Below are positions 2,604 to 39,346 of a stretch of 56,715 nucleotides of DNA, one piece after another (positions within the stretch are counted from its first letter, which is position 1; every line of letters starts with the position of its first letter). Below the pieces are notes generated by a model. That model was given only the letters and a program-made list of their open reading frames with translations, ran no database searches and was not told where the DNA came from. A program made the position numbers and the translations under genes. The stretch comes from a virus (lineage: Duplodnaviria; Heunggongvirae; Uroviricota; Caudoviricetes), in IMG/VR virus record IMGVR_UViG_2622736468_000005. One strand, 5' to 3'.

Positions 2604-5600
2604 TATGCAAGCCTCACAATATAGTTAAATGCGATGTTTTTGACGGTGTTTTCCGCGTTACCAGCAGCGTTAACGGTGATGGTGTGTCCATGTGAACCAA
2701 TCGCAACCGAGTGCGTATGCGCACCAATACCTACAGTATGTGCGTGTGCACCTGCGCTTGCAGCAGTACCCGATACAGAGTGCGTATGAGCGCCTGCAGA
2801 AGAAGTGTTAACACTGTATTTAGAATAATCAGGTGATCCACTTCCCGGAGCACCTTTGGTGCCACCTGAAACAAATGTTATCGAATGGGTATGTGCACCG
2901 GCTGAAGCAGCCGTACCGCTAACACTATGGGTATGCGCCCCGGTGTTATTCGTGGATTTAGTGCCGTAATCAAACGACGATGTGGTTTTCGTCCCCAAAT
3001 CCGTACTGGATGCGCTGGCGCTGTGGGTGTGCGATTTAATGCCGTCCTGTTCCTGAGACAATACGGCCCGACCACTGGCAGGTTTGCCCTTAATCGTCCA
3101 GCCACGCATATCAGGGATCACGCCTGACGGATAAGCGGCTGCAAGTTTCGGGTATGCAGATTTGTCAAAAGTCTGCCCCTGCATCAGGGCATAACCAGAC
3201 GGAACGGTATCTGATGGCCACGGGATTGGTGCGCCGACTGGGTAGCTTTCTGGTGGAAGATTTTTCGAGGTATAAACTTCTGCCCAGTCTTCCTCAAAAC
3301 CATAGCCATCTCTTGAGGAACGGTAGAACAGACCTCCATTTCTGTAATGCGCCTTCATCCGCAGGGTCCGGCAACTTCCGACTCCGGTATAGAAGTTAAC
3401 CAGAATATAGCTGTTGCCAGAGCGGGTGACATTGTAAGCGCCTGATTCGGCATTCCATGGAACGCCACCATCCGCATCGGCATATGTATCCGTTGCCCTT
3501 CTGGCAAAAGCAGCCACATGCGCGGCGGTTAAAGTAATATCTTTTGAACCATCAAACTCAACCCCAGAAACCCGTCTTGGCGTTTGCAGCTTTGTTGCTG
3601 TCAATGCGTTACCGTTCAGACTTGCAGACAGCTTGGTTCCAATAACCAGTTCGCCGGTTGCGTTATCAATAGCAAACGGTCTTAATGTATTCCATCCACC
3701 ATAAACATCACCTTGATTGGTAAGCAGCAGGTAAGTTTTAGCGCCATCATTACGCCATAATGCCCCATACTCCCCACCTATCATTCGAATCTGATTACCA
3801 CCACGCGCTACAATTTCGTCTGTGGCAAAAAGTTTTTTGCACGACAAGTTATCGTTAACGATTAACGAATGGGACTCATAAAAACCACGCCCACTCTTAA
3901 AATCAAGGATAACGTCCGCCGCGATACATTCAGTCGCCGGATTTGTTGCCCCAAACTTATAGGTCGTATCATTAACAACGAGATCAGCACCAGGTGCGGA
4001 TATTGACAGGCCATCTTCGATAAACGCAAAAACAGGGAAAGCAGCGCCATCAACATAGAACACAGAGCGCAAATCATCGCCCTTATTACTCATCATTATT
4101 GAGTGGATGGCTCGTTCATTGTTTTGATATTGCCAGAACATTCCATAAGCATAACGCCCCCTGTCAGTCCAGCCACCAGGCATAACAAATCCGTTAAACT
4201 CGCAGTTATTCATCGGATCGCCTGCGGTTCGCGTTGCCGTGGTGATAATGACCCTTGATGCCAGTTCGCTTACTGAGCCAGCAGAACGCATAACAACAAC
4301 AGGATAATATTTTCCAGATGTTGCACCTGCAGGAGCGTTAACCCGCACATAACGCATACCACGTTTATCAGCAAAGTCTGTTTTACTGACCGCGTTAATG
4401 TTGTTCAGGAAGCGTCCCTTATCGGGTATATCAGCGCCGTTCTGGTCTTTCTGCAGACGTTTCTCTGCATTGTCATAGGCTGCTTTTACTGCCTTTGGCG
4501 TTGCCGCCAGCGTTTCAGACGTGCTGTTGGTCGCGCTGCTGAGCTGTACTATCCCCTTTTTCGTCGTGCTCGCATCCTCAAGCGCCACGGCGGATGCAAT
4601 ATCCTCTGCCCGTTTTGCCGCTGTCTCGGCGCGCGTTGCCGCGGATTCCGCCGTACTTTTGCTCTGAGCTGCCGCCGTCGCACTGCCAGCTGCCTCTGTC
4701 GCCTTCGTGGATGCCGTCGTGGCGCTGCCCTTTGCTGCTGACGCCTGTCTGGTCGCCTCATCTTTTGAAGCAGACGCAGATGATGCCGATGACGCCGCCG
4801 AACTGGCGGACGATGCGGCAGCCGTTTTTGAGGATTCTGCGCTGGTTTCCGAGGCTTTCGCGTTCGTTTCGGATGTCTTCGCTGCCTCTTTTGAGGCCGC
4901 CGCATCCCGTGCTGAAGTGGCTGCTTCTGACGCTTTCGTGGTCGCGGTGGATGCAGAAGTGGCTGCTGATTGTTGTGACGCTGCCGCATTCGTTTCTGAC
5001 GTTTTCGCCGCACCGGCACTGGTAGCCGCCGCGCTTTTTGAGGACTCTGCAGCGGCAGCACTTTTTGATGTTTCAGTAGCCTTTGTTGATGCCGTTCCTG
5101 CGCTGGAAGACGCTGACTGAGCCGACATCGCGGCCTGCCCGGCTGATGTGCTGGCTGCACGTGCTGAGCCTGCAGCATCAGTCGCATGGGTTGCCGCCTC
5201 ACTGGCAGATATGCTGGCATCGCTGGCTGACTTCTTCGCGGCTGCCGTGTTCTGTGCCACCGCGGACGCGTTACGCGCCACCTCTTCCACCATCAGTTCA
5301 AAACGGCGCAGTGCCTCAGGACGGGCATCATCCTCCGTCATGGCACCGAGAAAATCATTCAGCGTACCTGGTCTGGAACCTTCATAGACGGTAATGGTCC
5401 CGGCATGTGAAGGCGGAAAACCTTCAACCAGCAGGGTGACGCTGTACTGACCATGCTCAACATCCATGCTGTAACGTCCGGCTTCATCCGGATTTTCAGA
5501 GGCCACCGTGTTCACCACCACCGTGCTGCTGGTTCGTCTGGCCTTCAGCACAATGGTGCAGTTCTGTACTGGTTTTCCTGTGCCATCTTTAAGCACGCCA

Positions 5601-5767: not shown

Positions 5768-6367
5768 TCAGAAACGGTATCCGATACCAACAATAAATGC
5801 ATCCGTTCGCCAGTCGCCACTACCGGAACCTTCATAAGCAAGGTCAACGGCCACGGATTCGGTCGGGTTAAACTGCACGCCAGCTCCCCACGCCAGAGAC
5901 GTGTTGCTGTGGCGACCGTCATCACTTCCGGTCAGCACGTCGTGCGTTTTCCCCTTGTTGTCAGTTACGCGGAGATAATCCCCGGAGAAAGTCGACACAC
6001 GGCTGTAAGCCACACCCGCCATCGAATACGCGCTGAACCATTCATTCACGCGTACAGACGGCCCCGCCATCACGCTGAACCAGCGGTTACGCACGGAATC
6101 TTCATGCCAGCGGGTATCGCTGTAGCGCGTTTTTTGCTCATCCTCAGCATTGGCATAACTGAAGGACGTAATCAGCCCCAGCGCGTCCGTAAACTCATAA
6201 CGGTATTTCACGTTAATCCCGTTCAGATCATCACTACCGGGAACGTTCGTCGAGGCATGGAGATACCCCGCGCTCAGCGTGGACTGATGTTCTGCTGCAC
6301 TCGCTGGCGTAGCAGCGGCGACCTGCCAGACTACTGCGGACAAAATAACAGCACATAATTTACGCAT
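5768..6367 (-). CDS. lom: Lom/Ail/PagC-family outer membrane beta-barrel protein
   Basis: 199-aa ORF with signal peptide (AAATPASA-AE), ends in aromatic residue (GYRF); located between J and stf as in lambda. Confidence 0.8.
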   Translation of the reverse strand: MRKLCAVILSAVVWQVAAATPASAAEHQSTLSAGYLHASTNVPGSDDLNGINVKYRYEFTDALGLITSFSYANAEDEQKTRYSDTRWHEDSVRNRWFSVMAGPSVRVNEWFSAYSMAGVAYSRVSTFSGDYLRVTDNKGKTHDVLTGSDDGRHSNTSLAWGAGVQFNPTESVAVDLAYEGSGSGDWRTDAFIVGIGYRF

Positions 6368-6434
6368 AATTACCTCTCGCTTTTCTGCAATAAAAAAGGC
6401 GCCATTTCTGGCGCCCGTATCTGGGTTATAAAAT

Positions 6435-9400
6435 TCAGCTAATCGTGATGCCTGCAGTGGCTTTCTTCATCACCACAACCAGCAAATCGCTGATACTTGC
6501 TGTGGGATACCAGTTATTTACCAGCCATGCTGACACCGAAAACTCCAGTGTCATGTGACCGTGACCGGCAGGCATATCAATAACACCACTGTAAATCAGC
6601 GTATTATCCAGCGCGGTACGGTTATAAATTTCAGCACCGTTTTTCCGCACTATCAGACGGCATGAGGAGTAAATATCAGTATGCTCTTTCTCATGTTTAG
6701 CGCCGCTGAATGCCACCGCCGGAATAACAATCTGCCGGTCAAACGGCTGATCGTCATAAACCCTGACGGTAATGGTTCCTGATGGCCACCGCTCCGGTGC
6801 ACGGGAGTCCCGGGGGAAAGCTTTGCCCACTGTTTTAACGAGATCGCCTTCAATCTGGTTCGCGGACAATTTTCCCAGAACCCGACAGTTCTCGTTAATC
6901 GTGACGTTGTTGAGCGTCCCGGAGTTCGCATTCACGTTACCGCTGATATCGGCATTTTTCGCCGTCAGCCGCCCGTCCGGTGTCAGGGAAAATGCCGGAG
7001 GATTACCGCCGCTGGTAATGGTGGGAGCCGTCAGATATTTCAGGAACACTTCATTCATAAATATCTGATCGCCCTGACCAACAAACATCGGCTTTGTGTT
7101 GCCATTCGCAGGATTAATCATCGCAATCCTGTCTGCCGCCAGCAGCACCTGACTCTGCATTCCTGCTGGCGTATTCTCAATACCGGCACCGATACCCGCA
7201 ATATAAAGGCGTCCGTCCTGCATCTGCTGCAGTTTCACGGCCCACATGCTGTTCAGGTTATTATTTGTATCAACCTGAACTTTCTGTATCTGCTGGATTG
7301 CCGCACTCTGATTTTCCAGTTTTTTATTGACGGTCTGCGTGATTTCATTGCTGACATTCGTAATGGACGTCCTGATTTCAGCCAGGTCCGGCGCAAGCTG
7401 ACCGTTATCAATCTGCGTCCACAGCTCCTGGGCCAGATGTGTTTTCCCGATTTCTCCTTTGAAAAAATCCAGGTAACCTTCCGCATCATCGCTCGCCCGA
7501 CCGACAGCCTCCACGAATGCCGATTTGCCAACAGTATTCACACTGCGGATATAAAAATAATAATCATGGCCCGGCTTGATATTGATACTGGCAGCTATCC
7601 AGTACAGCGCCGAGCCAAGATAGCGGGCTGCGGTTTCAACCTGCCTGATATCCGCAATCCGCTTTTCTGAGAACCAGAACTCAAACTGTACCGTCGGATC
7701 ATAAACGGCAAGATACGGCGTGGCGGTTATCTGAAAATAGCCCGGCGTCAGCTCAATCCGCGACGGCGCTGCCGGTGCGGCAATCCGGAAGGTGGTGGTG
7801 GCAGGTTCACCCTGCTGGCCATAGCTGTTTATCGCCCGCACCGTCAGGGTGTATTCCCCGAGCGGCAGGCCGCTGAAACGGTGCTCCGTGTCTGCGGTGA
7901 TGGCGGTGGTCACCAGTCTGGCATCCGTTCCCTTACCACTGGTCAGGCGCAGACTGAAGCGCACACCCTTCACCACCCGCGGCGTGTCCCATTTCGCCTG
8001 CGCCAGATACTGGCCGTCAGCTGCGCTCACCTCCACCGTCAGGTGCTGCACTGCCGGTGGGATGACGCTGTTCAGGGAACCTGACTGCGGCTCAAAGCGG
8101 GCACCGTTATCCACGATGGCTTCTTTTTCCGGTACGTGCTGCACCGCCGTGATGGCAAAGGTGCCGTCCGTGTTTTCCCGGACGGAGACACAGCGGAACA
8201 GGCGACGGCGCAGTGACGGCAGGGAGAGTCCCCACACCCCGTATGTCTCCACACCATCAGGCAGGGTACTGACCTGTATCCGGTCCGGCGCGGGGTGTTC
8301 GGTGATGTCCACACTCACCGGCTTACCGCTGCCGTTAATCAGGTTCACCGTGGCGGCACCGGTCTCCGGAAGTGTCACTTCACGGTCCAGCGTCAGGGTG
8401 CGGGTGGCAGCATCAATGGACAGGACACGTCCGCCGGTCAGGGTCCCGGCATAGTCGTTATCACAGATTTCAATGATGTCACCGGGTGTGTGCCGCAGCC
8501 CCTGAGACCCGAGCGTGAAATCCACCGTCTGCGTTTCCAGCAGTTCGGTCTTTATCACCCACAGTCCGGCACGGTGGGCCTGACCGCGGCTGGTACAGCC
8601 GAACGCGTCCATCTTCAGCAGGTTGCGTCCGTAGCGCAGTATGGCTTCCGGGTCTTCCACCAGTTCCGTGGAGGTCTGCCAGCCGTTCTGCGGGTCGGTG
8701 TAATTCACCTCCACCGCCGTGTGCCGGTCCTTCAGGGCACTGAAGCTGTAGCGGAATCCCACGCCGTTATCATCCACCACCACATCGCTGTTGGTGTACG
8801 GCCACACCACATCCGACGGGCGGTCCTGAACGAACGTCAGCGTCTGACCGTTCCATACCGGCATACAGCGCATCGCAGAGCAGAAATCACTGAGAACGTC
8901 CCACGCCTTACGCTGTTGTGCCAGGTACGCATTAAAGGTCATCCGCGGCTCGGTCCCCCCGAAACCATCCGGGACCGTCTGATCGCAGTACTGCCCGATG
9001 GCATACAGCGCCCACTTGTCCACATCCGCCGCCCCCAGACGTTTTCCCATGCCGTAGCGCGGGTGAGTCAGCATGTCCCACAGGCACCAGGCCGGGTTGT
9101 TGCTGTATGCCGGTTTCAGACTGCCGTCCCAGATACCACTGTACGTGCGTTTTTCCGGGTCATAGTTTGACGGCACCTGGATGATGCGACCGCGGATATG
9201 GTAGTTCACCGTCATCTGCTGGCCGCCGAACTGCTCCGCATCCACCTGCAGCCCCACAATGGCCGTGTTCGGGTAGCACTGTTTCACATCGATGATTTCG
9301 GTGTATGACGACCACAGCGTCTTATTCTGCAGCTGGTCCGTGGTGCTGTCCGCCGTCTCCCTGACCATCCGGATGTTAAAGGGCCGGGGAGGCAGATTAT

Positions 9401-12473: not shown

Positions 12474-13610
12474 TCAGAACTGATAAGTCATACCAACGGC
12501 AACGATATTATCCGTTGCAACACCTGCATCCTGGGTAAACTGACTTTCATCAATCAGATTGATTTTATAATCAACATAGGTGGACATATTTTTATTAAAA
12601 TAATATGTTGTACCCACATCAATATATTTAACCAGATCCTGATTGCCATAGTTTTTACCACCGACAATTATATCCTGAGCACGAGACTGCAGGAACGCCA
12701 GAGATGGACGCAAACCGAAATCAAACTGATACTGTAATACCGCTTCAAAGTTCTGGGCTTTATCTGCCACCCCTTTGTCGCCAAAGGTCGTCATATTCTG
12801 AGTCTCAGAATATATTGTCGCCAGATAAATGTTGTTGGCATCATATTTAAGCCCGGTGCCCCACATCTCAGCGTGTTTACCTTTTGCAACACTGCCGGAA
12901 TCAACAACTGTTTGAGTACCGTTTACTGTTTGCGTACCATTCAGGCCTTTCACCTGATTGTTGGTACGGTCTGCGTTAGTATATGCAGCCACGATACCAA
13001 AACCTTCATATTCATAACTGGCAGAGAAACCATAACCATCACCATTAGCTTCCTGAAGGTCATCACGTTCATTCTTGCCCTGATACTGAGCTGCAAAATT
13101 CAGGCCATCAACAAGTCCAAAGAAATCAGTATTACGGTAAGTCGCCACACCAGAAGTACGGGCAGTCATGAAGTTATCGGTCTGAGTCCAGCCATCACCA
13201 CCAAACTCTGGTAATACGTCGGTATAAGCACCAACATCATACGCAATACCATAGTTACGACCATAATCAATGCTGCCAAAGTCACCGAACTTCAGACCTG
13301 CAAACGCCAGACGAGTCTTATTACCCGCAGCACCGTCTGATTCAGTTTTATTACCAGAGAACTGATATTCCCACTGACCAAAACCGGTCAGTTGATCATT
13401 AATCTGAGTTTCACCTTTAAAGCCCAGACGTGCATATGTCCGATCACCATCATTTCCCTTATCGCTGGAGAAATAATGCAGTGCCGTTACACGTCCATAC
13501 AGATCAAGCTTATTGCTATCTTTGTTATATACTTCCGCAGCCTGCGCACCAGCTGCAAAAATCACAGCCGCAGCCACGGCTGAAAGTGCCACTGTCATTT
13601 TTTTCATCAT
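12474..13610 (-). CDS. general bacterial porin of the OmpC/OmpF/PhoE family (prophage moron)
   Basis: 378-aa ORF with signal peptide ([12 protein letters not shown]), porin signature stretches ([23 protein letters not shown]-terminal ...VAVGMTYQF); AT-rich flanks; inserted between tail genes L and M. Confidence 0.85.
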
Positions 13611-31067: not shown

Positions 31068-31283
31068 TTACTCTCCCCGTGCCGCCTTACGACGGTCCTC
31101 TCTGATTTTGAAATACAGGTTAGTCAGATATGTCAGCAGCCCAAACAGCAGACTCCCCAGCACGCCTATTGCCGCCCACTGAGACGGGGAAACCCTGTCC
31201 AGCAACTGCAGGAACCAGTAGCCCGTTCCCACCGCTGACGTGGTGTATGACACACCTGTTGTGATTTTTTCCATCTGGTACAT
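31068..31283 (-). CDS. S: pinholin (phage 21 S-like class II holin)
   Basis: Start taken at Met27 of the track ORF 31068..31361 ([10 protein letters not shown]..., dual-start motif); two TM segments; C-terminus ...[22 protein letters not shown] matches S21. Confidence 0.8.
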
Positions 31284-31433
31284 ACCCCGTCTCCCGTTAT
31301 CCGGAAGCTGACAACAATAAAAAAAGCCACCAGTTAAGTACTGATGGCTCTGATAACTCATGCAGGCGTCTCAGACGACCCACTGACACTACCGGTGAGT
31401 TTAACGATACCTTCCATTTGACTGGCTCACTTT

Positions 31434-33302
31434 TTATGATGATGCCGGTGCATTTATCTCCAGCACCAGACTTTCTATCTCAACGCCATACGCTGCATTT
31501 TTTGTAACATCCGTCAGCGTCAGCGCATTCAGCCCCAGTGTCAGACTGTCTTTTATGACCTGGAATGCCGGGCCAACCAGTCCATTCAGTTTCGGAGTAA
31601 CCGTGGCACTGCCGGCGGTGAACACCAGCTCCAGCGTCTGCCAGTCGTTACTGTAATTCCCGAACTCGCCCAACTTTGTGTTTCCGGCTTTCTTGTGATG
31701 CATCAGATTCAGTTTGCCGTCTGTGGTCTGGGTGAAGAACGACATCAGGAACGGGTTACCAGTCCCGGTCATCGCCACGACGTCAGGTAACGCTACATCG
31801 GTATACAGATAAATTCCCAGACCGAACTGGTTGTTGGTCAGTGCGCCTGACAGTCGAAACTTACAGCTCAGTCTGCCACCCCGTGTCAGCAGGGAGACTG
31901 CGTCATCCACCGGGCGCGTCAGGGACCAGGCTTTATTGCTCTGCTTGGCGATCTTAAATACACCATCTGACAACTGAATTCCGCCATTCTTAATGCTCCA
32001 GCCCTGCGCAGCAGCATCTCCGGCTGTCGGCAACAGGGAGATTGTGCGTACGGATGCATCTTCAGACGGCCCCGATGGCGTGTCGCCGCCGGGCGAGGGT
32101 TTGATTTCCGGTGCCTTACCACTGATGAAGGCTGAGGTGCGACCGGCTACGTTCAGAATAGCAGTTGCCATACGATCCGGAATAATGCTCCTGCGCGCCC
32201 ATGAACTGAAATGTGTCGGGCGGTTTGATGATACCTGGTTTCCATTCGTTCTCGATGCCGCACCGTAATATCCTGATGCCGGAATATCCGGATCTTCTGC
32301 CGGTGCGTTAGTGGCGGTATTGACGCCGTTACCGTCTGTCATGAAGGGCACAAAATAAACGCCCTCACTCTCCCTGTTTTTATACCCTCCGTACACGGTG
32401 TCGTACTGGGTAGCGTATGTATTTTTCCAGTAATACGTCGTGTCACCACAAATCCACGGCACATCTGCAGCACTGCCACCATGACACTGCGCGTTAAACA
32501 CAGTGAGGTCAGCACGAAACTGCTTCAGCATGGCTGTAAACAGCGCAGGTTGCTGTGCGTAGGTGGCGGCGCTCATGTCAAACTCTCCCTGCATCCAGCA
32601 CACCGCCAGCAACACATTTTTCGGGTTCTTCTGTAATGCAGCTTTAGTGCGCGCAATCAGGTCCTGATATAACGGTTTACCCACACCCCAGCGTGCCGAA
32701 TCCTGGCTGGCCCCCGTGTCCGCACTGAATGTCCCCTCCGCGCCCTGGGTGAATGCCGAACCACCACGACAGCATGGTACCAGCAGGATCCCCGCGTTAT
32801 TCGGGATATACGGAAGCAGTTTTTTGGCAATATGTAAGCCCTGGCCGACACAGCCGTACTGCCCTTTGCTCAGGTCTGCCTTCGGATGATTCAGCGTACT
32901 CATATCCTGCACATCATGCAGGCAGTGGTCGGCCGGAATAATATCGTTATATCTGCAGGCAGCCCCACCCGGCGTCACTGTACTGCGGCGCGCCAGCTGT
33001 TTAATGCGCGGATCCGGAGCATCGTATGAATCCGGCAGCGGAAGCCCTTCACCGTAAGCCATGGCATTGGACTGCCCGGCCAGTACGATGACGTAGTACC
33101 ACTCCGGCTCAGTTGCACCACTGACGACCACATCACCTTCTGCTGCAATCGCCTGCATCAGGGTATAAGGGGTTATGGCCACCGGACTACCAAACGGCTG
33201 CCAGCCCTCTTTCAGTTTATGTGTCAGCTTTTCCGCAAGATCTGACGGCGACGCCGCCCTGACAACATCATAGTGTTTAAATGCCATGGTTCTTTCCACC
33301 AT
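31434..33302 (-). CDS. prophage-encoded sialate O-acetylesterase-like protein (NanS-p / YjhS family, SGNH-type)
   Basis: 622-aa ORF with VIVLAGQSNAMAYG esterase motif; located between tRNA/Q region and lysis genes, as nanS-p is in Stx-type prophages. Confidence 0.65.
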   Translation of the reverse strand: MVERTMAFKHYDVVRAASPSDLAEKLTHKLKEGWQPFGSPVAITPYTLMQAIAAEGDVVVSGATEPEWYYVIVLAGQSNAMAYGEGLPLPDSYDAPDPRIKQLARRSTVTPGGAACRYNDIIPADHCLHDVQDMSTLNHPKADLSKGQYGCVGQGLHIAKKLLPYIPNNAGILLVPCCRGGSAFTQGAEGTFSADTGASQDSARWGVGKPLYQDLIARTKAALQKNPKNVLLAVCWMQGEFDMSAATYAQQPALFTAMLKQFRADLTVFNAQCHGGSAADVPWICGDTTYYWKNTYATQYDTVYGGYKNRESEGVYFVPFMTDGNGVNTATNAPAEDPDIPASGYYGAASRTNGNQVSSNRPTHFSSWARRSIIPDRMATAILNVAGRTSAFISGKAPEIKPSPGGDTPSGPSEDASVRTISLLPTAGDAAAQGWSIKNGGIQLSDGVFKIAKQSNKAWSLTRPVDDAVSLLTRGGRLSCKFRLSGALTNNQFGLGIYLYTDVALPDVVAMTGTGNPFLMSFFTQTTDGKLNLMHHKKAGNTKLGEFGNYSNDWQTLELVFTAGSATVTPKLNGLVGPAFQVIKDSLTLGLNALTLTDVTKNAAYGVEIESLVLEINAPASS

Positions 33303-33547
33303 CTGAAAAATGATTCTTTAAAATACCTGACATGTAATACAGAAAAAACACAAAACCATACCTTAAATAAAAACCTCATCATCAAGCAGATATGCATGGA
33401 TAAACTACAAGACGAGATATAAACCACCCTGCATTTAAATAAACAATAAACAACATCAGAAAAATAATTCTGCTCTATGGTTTACAATCAAAAATATCAT
33501 TTATACTTTTCAGAACATCACCAGCAAGGCATAAACAAGGAAACTAA

Positions 33548-33883
33548 ATGAAGTGGATTGTGATTGATACAGTTATCCAGCCATCATGCGGAATATCTTT
33601 TTCAGTCATATGGAGTAAAATAAAATTAATAATCTGGTATCAATCGGATGCTTTCTTACCTCCTGAAAGTATATTTACACTGACTCACACAGGCATCATG
33701 CTCAATAACAAAGTGCTACCTGTAACCATTTACAACGTAGTACCATTCAATAAAACATTCTGGAATTTAATCAAAAACAGCCAGGAATGCCCTACAAATA
33801 CAGATAACGTATTGAATGAATGCTTTAATAACCGTTGCACTCTGCAAATATGTCCTTATGGGCTAAAACAACAAAGTCCATAA
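33548..33883 (+). CDS. hypothetical Cys-containing protein, very AT-rich orphan gene
   Basis: 111-aa ORF; upstream TTTACA-17 bp-TATACT promoter-like sequence and AAGGA RBS; no recognisable family. Confidence 0.35.
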
Positions 33884-33918
33884 GCAGTTTACTCACATCT
33901 GACAAAATCAATATAAAC

Positions 33919-34140
33919 AGCCCCTCCGGAGAGGGGCTGGAGAGTGGCGCTATGTGCCATTGCATGGTGCCGGGTGCCTCCCGGTGAATTCAGTACCAGC
34001 ACCTGAATCCGCGATTATCCCATATACCTACTCGCTGATTACCCCTCCGCACAGGGGGATTCACCATGCGAAATTTTTTAACAAACTTCCCGCCGGCCAG
34101 ACAATAATCGCCAGCCTGAATTATGAGCAACGTGGCATTT
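33919..34140. repeat. repeat element copy A (~220 bp) beginning with perfect 20-bp palindrome agcccctccggagaggggct
   Basis: Shares palindrome and several conserved blocks (gcatggtgcc..cctcccggt.aattcag, gggggattcaccatgcga, ttttaacaaa, cagacaat) with copy B; compensatory changes in stems. Confidence 0.55.
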
Positions 34141-34381
34141 TACGGGAAAACTGTTTTCTGCAGTAAAAAGGCCCGCCGGAGCGAGCCTGGAAGGATAGCG
34201 GTCATGTGATGCCGGTTTCCCGGTAACTCAGCATCGGTATCTGAGTCAACGTTTTCTCTACTGGGTCATTTCCGATACGTTCCGCCTTCCGGCAGACTTT
34301 CATCACGTCAGAAAATATAGCACCCTGAGTAACAGGACAGTACTCAGAATTCAGGAAACTGTGACACATCCTGCACAGAAA

Positions 34382-34600
34382 AGCCCCTCCGGAGAGGGGC
34401 TGAAGTATAGCCTAATTTCTGTCTGTCGCATGGTGCCAGGGGCCTCCCGGTAAATTCAGCCTGTCTACTGAATTTGCATGTTCTCTGGATCATACACTTT
34501 GCCAGATGCCCCGCCGCTGAGGGGGATTCACCATGCGATGTAATTTTTAACAAATTCTCCGGCAGCCAGACAATCATCAAGCTGTGGAATTGTGAGGTAT
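34382..34600. repeat. repeat element copy B (paralog of 33919..34140)
   Basis: Same palindrome and conserved blocks; hairpin aaattcag-cctgtcta-ctgaattt. Confidence 0.55.
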
Positions 34601-34829: not shown

Positions 34830-34906
34830 TGGACCGCCATCGGGGACTTGAACCCCGCGCAGCCAGCTTCGAAGGCTGGCGCTCTATCCCGATGAGCTAA
34901 TGGCGG
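34830..34906 (-). tRNA. tRNA-Arg (anticodon read as TCG)
   Basis: 77-nt cloverleaf on minus strand: acceptor CCGCCAT/ATGGCGG, D-arm GCTCATCGGGATAGAGC, anticodon loop CTTCGAA, T-arm CGGGGTTCAAGTCCCCG, 3' TCCA. Confidence 0.7.
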
Positions 34907-34913
34907 TATGTGA

Positions 34914-34989
34914 TGGTGGCCCTTGCTGGATTTGAACCAGCGACCTGGCGATTATGAGTCGCTCGCTCTCACCACTGAGCTAAAGGGCC
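34914..34989 (-). tRNA. tRNA-Ile2 (anticodon CAT, ileX/ileZ-like) or tRNA-Met
   Basis: 76-nt minus-strand sequence GGCCCTTTAGCTCAGTGGTGAGAGCGAGCGACTCATAATCGCCAGGTCGCTGGTTCAAATCCAGCAAGGGCCACCA; 7-bp acceptor stem, CTCATAA loop. Confidence 0.8.
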
Positions 34990-35038: not shown

Positions 35039-36088
35039 TCAAACGATTAAATCCTGAACTTCCCTGACTGTCTGCTCAAAACGTCCGGTCTCCAGTTCAA
35101 CGCCAATCGCACGACGCCCGAGCGCCAGTGCAGCTTTTACCGTTGAACCTGAGCCCATAAAAAAATCTGCAACCAGGTCACCCGGACGACTGCTTGCGCT
35201 GATTATCTGCTGCAGCATTTCTGCCGGTTTTTCGCACGGATGTTTCCCGGGATAGAACTGCACCGGTTTATGTGTCCACACATCCGTGTACGGCACCTGC
35301 GCCGTCACACCAAAATACCGCCGCAGATGCTTATATTCACTCTGCAGCTCCACATACTGCCGGTTCAGTGACGTATACGTATCCACCAGCTGGTGGTGGG
35401 GCTTTTCCAGTTCACCGCGCTGATGTTTCTCTTCTGCCACCCGGGCAAACAGCGACTGTAATTTCAGATAATCGCTTTCGTTCGGTAGCTGCCACTGACT
35501 GGCACTGAACCAGTGCGACACCATGTTTTTCTTTCCTGTGGCATCTGCAATCTGTTTTGCCGTTATCCCCAGGGCCGCGCGCGCATCACGAAAGTAAGAA
35601 ATCAGCGGGGCCATCACATGCTGTTTCAGTGCACTGCCCTTCGCCGCATACCCGGCATCTTTCGGACGATACGGCCCCTGATAATGTTCCGCGAACAGAA
35701 TGCGCTCTGTGGCGGGGAAATACGCCCGCAGGCTTTCCTTGTTGCATCCGTTCCAGCGTCCGGACGGCTTCGCCCAGATAATATGGTTCAGCACACTGAA
35801 GCGTTCACGCATCATGATTTCGATATCAGATGCCAGGCGATGACCACAGAACAGGTAAAGACTTCCGGCAGGTTTCAGCACCCGCCAGAACTGCGCCAGA
35901 CACTGGTCCAGCCACTTCAGGTAATCATCGTCGCCCTTCCACTGGTTATCCCAGCCCTCAGGCTTCACTTTAAAGTACGGCGGGTCCGTGACTATCAGGT
36001 CAACAGAATTTTCGGGTAACGACCGGATAAATTCCAGGCAGTCGGCGTTGATTAACTCACAACTGGATATTTTTACAGTATTAAGCAT
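35039..36088 (-). CDS. orphan DNA methyltransferase (N6-adenine/N4-cytosine type, DPPY motif)
   Basis: 349-aa ORF with catalytic DPPY (LIVTDPPYF) and C-terminal SAM-binding FxGxG (FFMGSGST); no adjacent restriction enzyme. Confidence 0.8.
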   Translation of the reverse strand: MLNTVKISSCELINADCLEFIRSLPENSVDLIVTDPPYFKVKPEGWDNQWKGDDDYLKWLDQCLAQFWRVLKPAGSLYLFCGHRLASDIEIMMRERFSVLNHIIWAKPSGRWNGCNKESLRAYFPATERILFAEHYQGPYRPKDAGYAAKGSALKQHVMAPLISYFRDARAALGITAKQIADATGKKNMVSHWFSASQWQLPNESDYLKLQSLFARVAEEKHQRGELEKPHHQLVDTYTSLNRQYVELQSEYKHLRRYFGVTAQVPYTDVWTHKPVQFYPGKHPCEKPAEMLQQIISASSRPGDLVADFFMGSGSTVKAALALGRRAIGVELETGRFEQTVREVQDLIV

Positions 36089-36662: not shown

Positions 36663-37484
36663 CTATCGCGTTACCCTCTTTAACTGCCGCTCCGCCCATG
36701 CCTCTTCAATGTCAAACCGAACCACCAACGTATCGTAAAAGCGTTTCACTGATTTTTTCCACGTATCAAGCGTGATAGCACTCGTCACTTTGCATATGGC
36801 ATTAAATGCCTCCGTTGATGGCAGCCTTTCACAGCCACGACCACCACAACGCTGGCAATCTCTGATAACAGGCATACCACGTTTTACCGACTCTTCACGA
36901 TGAATGGCGACACCACGCCCACGGCAATCCTTACAGGCGGTGGAAACCTCACCCTTTCCGCCACACTCCGGACAGGCAACTTTTACCACCTCCCTGACTT
37001 TTTTCCATTCTTCCCAGTAAGACGGATACACGCCTTTTGTGCACTTTGCCCACACTGGTGGCTTACCATCCGGATACTGGATCTTGTTTGTAAAAACCTC
37101 GCTTTCAATAAATTTTTTTCCGTGACAGCAGGGGCACTGTTTTTTGCTCGCCGCGCTACGGGCATAATCTTCAAACGCATACGAAGCCATAATGCGCATC
37201 ACTACCGGTTTTATTTCTGCCGGAAGTTTTCTCAACGCCGCCACACGATCGCACCGACTGAGTGCATAATCTGCCAGTAATTCTGTTGCCCGCGCCCTGT
37301 CATTCATACTGATGCCCATTTTCCCCAGGAACGCAGAAACCCCCATCTCAGCCCGATTCTGTGTCATGCCCTGCGCGGCCATCACATCAGTGATACTCAG
37401 CGCATCTTTTGACGTTGAGGCCGATGCATCGGTCAGGCCAGGGGATTTTGGGGAGTAGTATTTCGGTAAATCTTCCAGTTTCAT
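36663..37484 (-). CDS. Q: late-gene antiterminator Q (zinc-binding type)
   Basis: 273-aa ORF with multiple CxxC pairs (CPCCHGK, CPECGGKG, CKDCRGRG, CQRCGGRG); positioned after rusA and before late operon. Confidence 0.7.
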   Translation of the reverse strand: MKLEDLPKYYSPKSPGLTDASASTSKDALSITDVMAAQGMTQNRAEMGVSAFLGKMGISMNDRARATELLADYALSRCDRVAALRKLPAEIKPVVMRIMASYAFEDYARSAASKKQCPCCHGKKFIESEVFTNKIQYPDGKPPVWAKCTKGVYPSYWEEWKKVREVVKVACPECGGKGEVSTACKDCRGRGVAIHREESVKRGMPVIRDCQRCGGRGCERLPSTEAFNAICKVTSAITLDTWKKSVKRFYDTLVVRFDIEEAWAERQLKRVTR

Positions 37485-38132: not shown

Positions 38133-38459
38133 ATGACTAAAAATACTCGTTTTTCCCCCGAAGTCCGTCAACGGGCAGTCCGTATGGTTCTGGAAAGTCA
38201 GAGCGAATATGACTCACAATGGGCGACAATTTGTTCCATTGCTCCAAAGATTGGCTGTACGCCGGAGACTCTGCGTGTCTGGGTTCGCCAGCATGAGCGG
38301 GATACCGGGGGCGGTGATGGAGGGCTCACCACCGCTGAACGTCAGCGTCTGAAAGAGCTGGAGCGTGAAAATCGTGAACTGCGCCGCAGTAACGATATCC
38401 TTCGCCAGGCTTCCGCTTATTTTGCGAAGGCGGAGTTCGACCGCCTCTGGAAAAAATGA
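38133..38459 (+). CDS. IS629 transposase OrfA (HTH)
   Basis: 108-aa [25 protein letters not shown]...; slippery A AAA AAT at its end. Confidence 0.85.
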
Positions 38460-39346
38460 TGCCACTGCTGGATAAGCTGCGTGAGCAGTACGGGGTCGGA
38501 CCGCTATGCAGCGAACTGCATATTGCCCCGTCAACGTATTACCACTGTCAGCAACAGCGACATCATCCGGATAAACGCAGTGCCCGTGCGCAGCGCGATG
38601 ACTGGCTGAAGAAAGAGATACAGCGCGTATACGATGAAAATCACAAGGTATACGGTGTGCGTAAAGTCTGGCGTCAGTTGTTACGGGAAGGTATCAGAGT
38701 GGCCAGATGCACTGTGGCACGTCTCATGGCGGTTATGGGACTTGCCGGTGTTCTCCGGGGTAAAAAGGTCCGTACGACCATCAGCCGGAAAGCCGTTGCC
38801 GCAGGCGACCGCGTAAACCGTCAGTTCGTGGCAGAACGACCTGACCAGCTGTGGGTGGCTGATTTTACTTACGTCAGCACATGGCAGGGCTTCGTCTATG
38901 TGGCGTTCATCATTGATGTGTTTGCCGGATACATCGTGGGGTGGCGGGTCTCATCGTCCATGGAAACGACATTCGTGCTGGATGCACTGGAGCAGGCGTT
39001 ATGGGCCCGTCGACCGTCCGGCACGGTCCATCACAGTGATAAAGGTTCTCAGTATGTATCGCTGGCCTACACACAGCGGCTTAAGGAAGCCGGATTACTG
39101 GCATCAACAGGAAGTACAGGCGACTCGTATGACAACGCGATGGCGGAGAGCATCAATGGTCTTTACAAAGCGGAGGTAATACACCGTAAGAGCTGGAAAA
39201 ACCGTGCAGAAGTGGAACTGGCCACACTCACGTGGGTGGACTGGTATAACAATCGACGATTGCTGGAAAGGCTGGGCCATACTCCTCCGGCAGAAGCAGA
39301 AAAAGCTTATTATGCTTCCATCGGAAACGATGATCTGGCAGCCTGA
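38456..39346 (+). CDS. IS629 transposase OrfB (DDE integrase domain)
   Basis: 296-aa ORF overlapping orfA in -1 frame; DDE-type catalytic core. Confidence 0.85.

Follow-up and report, generated by a model that had tools for sequence, protein, structure and literature searches.

The open reading frame at 33548-33883 is iraL, an already known, named and experimentally studied gene, and we hold it very probable that the full reading applies to this copy, namely that it is a prophage moron encoding an RssB anti-adaptor that stabilises RpoS. The DNA analysed, called the window throughout, is the whole 56,715-nt stretch of virus record IMGVR_UViG_2622736468_000005. The original prediction for this frame, an AT-rich orphan gene with its own promoter at the stx-equivalent locus, concerned a feature that was already known, and as an observation it is largely correct apart from the promoter spacer.

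Identity of the gene

33548-33883, + strand: iraL coding sequence, 111 aa plus stop, RssB anti-adaptor of the IraM family (from the ORF list and identity to CFT073 IraL)

The reading frame begins with ATG, encodes five cysteines at positions 14, 81, 92, 97 and 102, and lies, as had been described, on the strand opposite to the late operon, where Q, the esterase, the holin and the lysozyme are all on the - strand. When the translations are compared, the protein is identical at 111 of 111 positions to IraL of E. coli CFT073 (c1429), and the window protein and the CFT073 potB-prophage protein have the RefSeq accession WP_000871291.1 in common. By a criterion of at least 95% nucleotide identity to CFT073 iraL, together with the iraL promoter and transcription start, the gene is classed as the iraL allele and not as iraM. 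Because the protein is identical to the characterised CFT073 IraL, the gene is not an orphan. The NCBIfam model NF007393 / PRK09919 (IraM) gives it a score of 162 bits, above the cutoff of 121 (E 4.7e-48), covering residues 1-110 and profile positions 1-113 of 114 and thus the full length of the family, and residues 1-78 align to the IraM chain of PDB entry 8TWD (8twd_A) with an E value of 9e-32.

Other searches agree on the family. An exact-sequence look-up assigns the product to a cluster of 1045 members under the name 'anti-adapter protein IraM', which is also the label RefSeq uses for it throughout, and the homologue search returned 20 clusters, every displayed source name being Escherichia. 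BLASTP, which had been proposed as a check, found K-12 IraM with 62% identity over 107 residues, and a 111-column global alignment gives 59.5%; the published identity of IraL and IraM, 58.9%, is in line with these values (Hryckowian et al. 2014, mBio, PMC4045071). Neither IraL nor K-12 IraM nor the phage 1717 allele described below had a match in Pfam hmmscan, even at E values up to 10, in contrast to the PF11183 label precomputed for IraM-family members in a large protein database, and the PHROGs match for the product is phrog_4407, annotated only as 'unknown function'.

Position in the late region and relation to stx

The features of the late region around iraL are as follows.

31068-31361, - strand: P21-type holin (Pfam)
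31434-33302, - strand: NanS-p-like sialate O-acetylesterase (DUF1737 + SASA + DUF6645), the first late gene downstream of the cassette (Pfam)
33289-33918, no strand assigned: AT-rich iraL cassette, 630 bp, about 32% GC (BLAST against an iraL-less O157:H7 prophage, and composition)
33909-34097, - strand: STnc100 sRNA copy 1, convergent with iraL (Rfam RF02076, 132.5 bits, E 9e-30)
33918-33939, - strand: GC-rich hairpin, the STnc100 intrinsic terminator (terminator scan and RNA fold)
34162-34337, - strand: degenerate STnc100-like copy (Rfam, 30 bits against a gathering score of 47; repeat family D1)
34373-34566, - strand: STnc100 sRNA copy 2 (Rfam, 138 bits, E 3.5e-31)
34830-34989, - strand: tRNA pair, tRNA-Arg(TCG) and a CAT-anticodon tRNA (ARAGORN, Rfam and the RefSeq annotation of NCTC86)
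35039-36088, - strand: DNA methylase (ORF list/Pfam)
36663-37484, - strand: late antiterminator Q (Pfam PF03589, E 1.3e-49)

The order in the window is Q, then iraL, then the esterase (RefSeq name 'SASA family carbohydrate esterase'), then the holin, which puts iraL between Q and the lysis genes. CFT073 carries iraL in the same slot, in the order Q, tRNAs, STnc100, iraL (opposite strand), DUF1737/esterase and holin. The two prophages differ in detail: in CFT073, Q is followed by IS200C, the tRNAs number three, STnc100 is present once and the esterase is truncated, whereas in the window Q is followed by a DNA methylase, the tRNAs number two, STnc100 is present in two strong copies and a degenerate one, and the esterase is intact. 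The location of iraL was published as the 'potB genomic island' (PMC4045071), whereas we describe it here as a slot in a lambdoid late region.

Several smaller features of this region were noted in passing. The two full STnc100 copies and the degenerate one form a tandem array (33909-34566, - strand) with a repeat period of about 466 bp; STnc100 is single-copy in CFT073, FDAARGOS_536, O157:H7 and the Stx phage loci examined. The window has two tRNAs as against Ile-Arg-Arg in related prophages, and its CAT-anticodon tRNA is called Met by ARAGORN and Ile by the RefSeq annotation.

The placement of the gene at the stx-equivalent locus holds for the region, from Q to lysis, but not for the exact slot. 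In an Stx1 phage the late-strand order is Q, pR', stx1AB, STnc100, esterase, holin; in an unannotated Stx2a phage record about 1.4 kb separate the tRNAs from STnc100 downstream of them, enough room for stx2; and in the Stx2c phage 1717 stx2cAB, on the late strand, follows Q and the tRNAs and precedes STnc100, after which come an IraM-family gene in the opposite orientation, the esterase and the holin. Thus stx occupies a position one slot upstream, between Q/tRNAs and STnc100, an interval that in the window contains only a 38-aa DUF3927 ORF, while iraL lies between STnc100 and the esterase on the opposite strand. Since stx2cAB and the IraM-family gene are side by side in phage 1717, the two slots are adjacent, not alternative, and both cargoes can co-occur.

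The IraM-family gene of phage 1717 is a third allele, distinct from iraL and K-12 iraM.

5001-5324 of locus L008 (NC_011357.1 26252-26575), antisense to the late operon: phage 1717 IraM-family allele, gp43 (phage record)

In phage 1717 and in phage 2851 this allele occupies the same antisense slot as iraL, between STnc100 and the nanS-p esterase; in phage 1717 it adjoins stx2cAB downstream, after STnc100, and it is also present in some Stx2a phages. Its protein is 72% identical to IraL and 65% identical to K-12 IraM and ends in the same tail with four cysteines (Cys4), but it is 107 aa long and has two extra cysteines, and its core promoter has diverged, with TATAAT as the -10 hexamer. In the literature available to us, which is incomplete and so gives weak evidence of novelty, we found no report linking IraM with Stx2c and no experimental study of the allele.

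The AT-rich cassette

The cassette that contains iraL is bounded by the start of the esterase and the STnc100 terminator and comprises the upstream region, the promoter and the gene. In a collinear O157:H7 prophage that lacks iraL, BLAST homology to the window stops at 33288 and restarts at 33919, and the intervening position is occupied by an unrelated 232-bp segment of ordinary composition (locus L004). The base composition is indeed far below the prophage average, as had been noted, with 34.8% GC in the iraL ORF and 32.4% in 33303-33917 as against 51.6% in the whole window; only 0.8% of 336-bp segments are as AT-rich as the ORF, and within the late region the stretch that holds the ORF has the highest AT content.

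The cassette is therefore a discrete insert that is absent from a collinear phage, deviates in GC content and brings its own promoter, as is characteristic of a moron. What it does not bring is a terminator: the only hairpin downstream of iraL is the one at 33918-33939, whose U-tract is solely on the - strand, and thus iraL has no canonical terminator of its own. Taken together, these observations support the conclusion that iraL is a self-contained AT-rich moron that carries its own promoter and is inserted between Q and the lysis genes of a lambdoid prophage. Of the proposal that it is a recently acquired cargo gene, the discrete AT-rich cargo with its own promoter stands but the recency is not supported, because the family has three alleles among which dS is 1.1-2.0, near saturation.

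Elsewhere in the window, a second AT-rich island at 12474-13610 (- strand) carries the gene for a full-length porin of the Gram-negative type (Pfam Porin_1, E 3e-142), and since this island is AT-rich and inserted among tail genes, the porin is another lysogenic-conversion cargo. An Ail/Lom gene is present at 5768-6367. An IS3-family element with an ALIL frameshift pseudoknot and an rve-domain transposase lies upstream of the Q region at 38414-39346 (+ strand); the prophage of NCTC86, near-identical in other respects, has no element of this kind in its annotation.

Promoter and regulation

The elements upstream of iraL, together with a repeat from the phage 1717 allele, are listed here.

33436-33452, - strand: candidate PhoP-box-like direct repeat TGTTTA-N5-TATTTA, 63-79 bp upstream of the transcription start
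33481-33486, + strand: -35-like hexamer TTTACA, with a 15-bp spacer to the -10 (sequence)
33502-33507, + strand: -10 hexamer TATACT, 7 nt upstream of the mapped transcription start
33515, + strand: transcription start site, inferred from the published CFT073 5'-RACE, which matches 33515-33546 in 31/32 nt
33537-33541, + strand: Shine-Dalgarno sequence AAGGA, 6 nt before the ATG (sequence)
4889-4905 of locus L008, - strand: PhoP-box-like repeat of the phage 1717 allele, in the same position and with one mismatch

The 5' terminus of the iraL transcript in CFT073 was determined by RACE (Hryckowian et al. 2014, PMC4045071), and because the corresponding start in the window is 7 nt downstream of TATACT, this hexamer is validated as the -10. 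The region from -100 to +33, which in the case of CFT073 is the fragment that was used for complementation (PMC4045071), is identical to that of CFT073 at 133 of 136 nt, and the differences are three single bases, one of which falls within the spacer and another immediately upstream of the transcription start. Thus, both hexamers of the predicted promoter TTTACA-17 bp-TATACT are present, but they are separated by 15 bp and not 17; the ribosome-binding site that had been predicted with it is the AAGGA listed above. The 15-bp spacer is also the reason that a sigma-70 consensus scan with 16-18-bp spacers did not report the iraL promoter, and as the spacing is non-canonical, promoter strength is not predictable from sequence.

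Expression of iraL in CFT073 is reported to rise by 1.6 log2 on a shift from 23 to 37 C and to be up in a delta-fur strain. Scanning 33289-33560 for a Fur box (19-mer, up to 6 mismatches) returned none, and for this reason the published increase of IraL in delta-fur is probably indirect.

An alternative view of the regulation is that iraL is an anti-adaptor induced mainly by PhoP/PhoQ in low Mg2+, like K-12 iraM, through the repeat at 33436-33452, and is not constitutive in log phase. K-12 IraM is indeed described as the Mg2+-starvation anti-adaptor, but the upstream regions of iraL and K-12 iraM are not alignable, and the same scan finds at K-12 iraM no box that is better than chance. The repeat in the window is the sole match to a PhoP box with at most one mismatch in 56.7 kb, although chance alone would yield about 0.6 such matches and 46% of shuffled sequences contain at least one, so that the match is not significant alone, and the region is very AT-rich. 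It speaks for PhoP that iraL and the Stx2c-phage allele both have the repeat at the same distance from the start codon, 96-112 bp upstream, in the latter with one mismatch, although the promoter sequence around it is only about 60% identical. Against this, the published expression from the iraL promoter was in log phase in LB. We regard control mainly by PhoP as unlikely, and favour transcription of iraL from its mapped promoter during growth.

Distribution among E. coli genomes and phages

We counted IraM-family genes in 5426 complete E. coli genomes. The iraL DNA is present in 1446 of them, in 1-3 copies each; the junction between esterase and iraL is kept in 1383 genomes and that between iraL and STnc100 in 1399, so the slot is conserved in about 96-97% of carriers. 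The Stx2c-phage allele was found in 236 of the 5426 genomes, mostly O157:H7. When phage genomes were searched by tblastn, IraL-type sequences (98% identity) were found in four E. coli phage records and the distinct allele (about 72-74% identity) in 41, most of which are Stx2c- or Stx2a-converting phages.

K-12-type iraM is present in 3937 of the 5426 genomes. We observe that the counts for iraM and iraL add up to nearly the total, which hints that the two genes are almost complementary across strains, as has been observed for CFT073 and K-12 (PMC4045071).

The K-12 gene differs from iraL in its surroundings. Its upstream region is unrelated to that of iraL, and it occupies a chromosomal locus next to e14/icdC; RefSeq places it just outside e14, beyond the icdC pseudogene (6414-7004 of locus L002, which is MG1655 1211413-1212003), unlike the IraL paper, which puts it 'on the e14 prophage' (PMC4045071). 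A reading of the K-12 locus as a recognisable leftover of the phage slot of iraL was dropped, as no remnant of STnc100, a tRNA or the esterase was found in the flanks of K-12 iraM.

RssB binding and RpoS stabilisation

IraL was described as a fourth RssB anti-adaptor, one that makes RpoS more stable during log phase (Hryckowian et al. 2014, mBio, PMC4045071). In that work, which concerns a protein identical to that of the window and a near-identical promoter, delta-iraL strains of CFT073 or S. sonnei had lower log-phase RpoS, the half-life of RpoS was about 5 min in the wild type and about 2.5 min in delta-iraL, iraL complemented from its own promoter at attTn7, and plasmid-borne iraL raised log-phase RpoS in K-12 (PMC4045071). 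IraL co-purified with RssB, and in two-hybrid assays it bound only the N-terminal receiver domain of RssB, whereas IraM bound both domains (PMC4045071).

IraM and IraL belong to the same family and length class (the K-12 gene is also called YcgW), and the crystal structure of IraM(1-78) with RssB (8TWD) shows a PmrD-like beta-barrel that packs against the alpha4-beta5-alpha5 face of the receiver as well as the helical linker of RssB, blocking engagement of sigma-S (Brugger et al. 2023). We mapped the RssB-contact residues of clusters I-III given there onto IraL. All five contacts to the RssB N-terminal domain in cluster I (I4, I6, W22, K26 and I42) are identical between K-12 IraM and IraL; cluster II is identical at 3/5 positions with two conservative changes, and cluster III, taken with P66, at 3/5. 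Substitutions in the clusters that contact the C-terminal domain and linker of RssB are T13S, L75I, H63N and I64V. Thus, the RssB-contact residues of the IraM family are conserved in IraL, and as read from the sequence the pattern would fit the published preference of IraL for the N-terminal domain. By analogy with IraM in 8TWD, IraL would bind the 4-5-5 face of RssB.

The AF2 model of IraL, built from a 12-sequence alignment, has a mean pLDDT of 59.7, falling below 50 in the tail, and an rmsd of 5.3 A to 8TWD. Despite its low confidence the model has the strands and the helix in the right order, and a structural search with it returns 8twd_A first and 2jso second, an antimicrobial resistance protein that we take to be PmrD. 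Because the model is poor, the assignment of IraL to a PmrD-like beta-barrel fold rests on sequence homology to IraM.

PmrD, the PhoP-activated connector, is a small beta-barrel, the fold also predicted for IraL, and like IraL it binds the receiver domain of a response regulator; its similarity in fold to IraM was reported in the 8TWD work. No sequence similarity between PmrD and IraL is detectable, and their identity in a structural alignment is 15%. The two also differ in what they act on, as PmrD protects phospho-PmrA whereas IraL targets RssB and so inhibits an adaptor.

With its protein and promoter so close to those of CFT073, the window copy is predicted to be expressed and to act like CFT073 IraL. 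In a lysogen, iraL would be transcribed from its own sigma-70 promoter, starting at 33515, antisense to the silent late operon, and IraL, as a small PmrD-like beta-barrel, would bind the N-terminal receiver domain of the adaptor RssB. RssB bound in this way would no longer hand RpoS to ClpXP, the half-life of RpoS would rise, and the general stress regulon would be partly on in exponential growth.

Selection on the protein and the Cys4 tail

When iraL is compared with the two diverged alleles, dN/dS is 0.10-0.17, i.e., the protein is under strong purifying selection. This bears on a phage-centred role in which the protein would be secondary and convergent iraL transcription into STnc100 and the late operon would act by interference or as an antisense brake. 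The arrangement itself would suit such a brake: the 3' end of STnc100 is convergent with iraL and 25 bp from its stop, iraL has no U-tract terminator on the + strand, and the antisense orientation and slot are kept not only in 96-97% of iraL carriers but also for the Stx2c-phage allele. However, selection has acted on the protein, its RssB contacts are conserved, and the gene alone, in K-12 or at attTn7, reproduces the effect on RpoS, all of which makes a transcriptional role of this kind very improbable and favours the anti-adaptor as the function of iraL. That the ORF is spurious or non-functional in AT-rich intergenic DNA, as its empty Pfam search and uninformative PHROGs family might suggest, and as would have followed from a lack of conservation in related genomes, can be dismissed with near certainty, since an identical protein has been characterised experimentally, over 1400 genomes keep it at full length (the same DNA occurs in 1446 complete E. 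coli genomes), dN/dS lies far under 1, and the structure of a homologue has been solved by crystallography.

Within the C-terminal tail the best-conserved part is the Cys4 motif (IraL residues 81-106, encoded at 33788-33865), in which the residues C81-P82...C92...C97...I101-C102-P103...G105 are invariant across all family members retrieved, the Cys4 motif of K-12 IraM being identical to that of IraL. Y104 is conserved in at least 90% of members, and C14 is not invariant. In the crystallographic study the tail of IraM was removed and was described as less conserved and flexible (Brugger et al. 2023). The four cysteines may form a metal-binding or disulfide module.

Discussion

As a lysogenic-conversion gene iraL is already known: it raises RpoS in growing cells, has been linked to uropathogenic and Shigella lineages, and shows how a prophage can rewire a core stress pathway of its host with one small protein. 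Three points go beyond the literature available to us, namely that the conserved iraL slot is one step downstream of stx, that a third allele lies beside stx2c in O157:H7 phages, and that the Cys4 motif is the best-conserved part of the tail left out of the crystal; we consider them modest leads and not discoveries. From these leads we tentatively propose, as a possibility that we judge somewhat improbable as a whole, that IraM-family genes fill a fixed antisense cargo slot of lambdoid phages just past stx/STnc100, and that the third allele, carried with stx2c in O157:H7 phages, might be an RssB inhibitor that is tuned by PhoP or temperature and depends on its Cys4 tail. If the third allele does inhibit RssB, Stx2c lysogeny would bring its own stabiliser of RpoS, and carriage of a toxin phage would be linked to the general stress response of the host.
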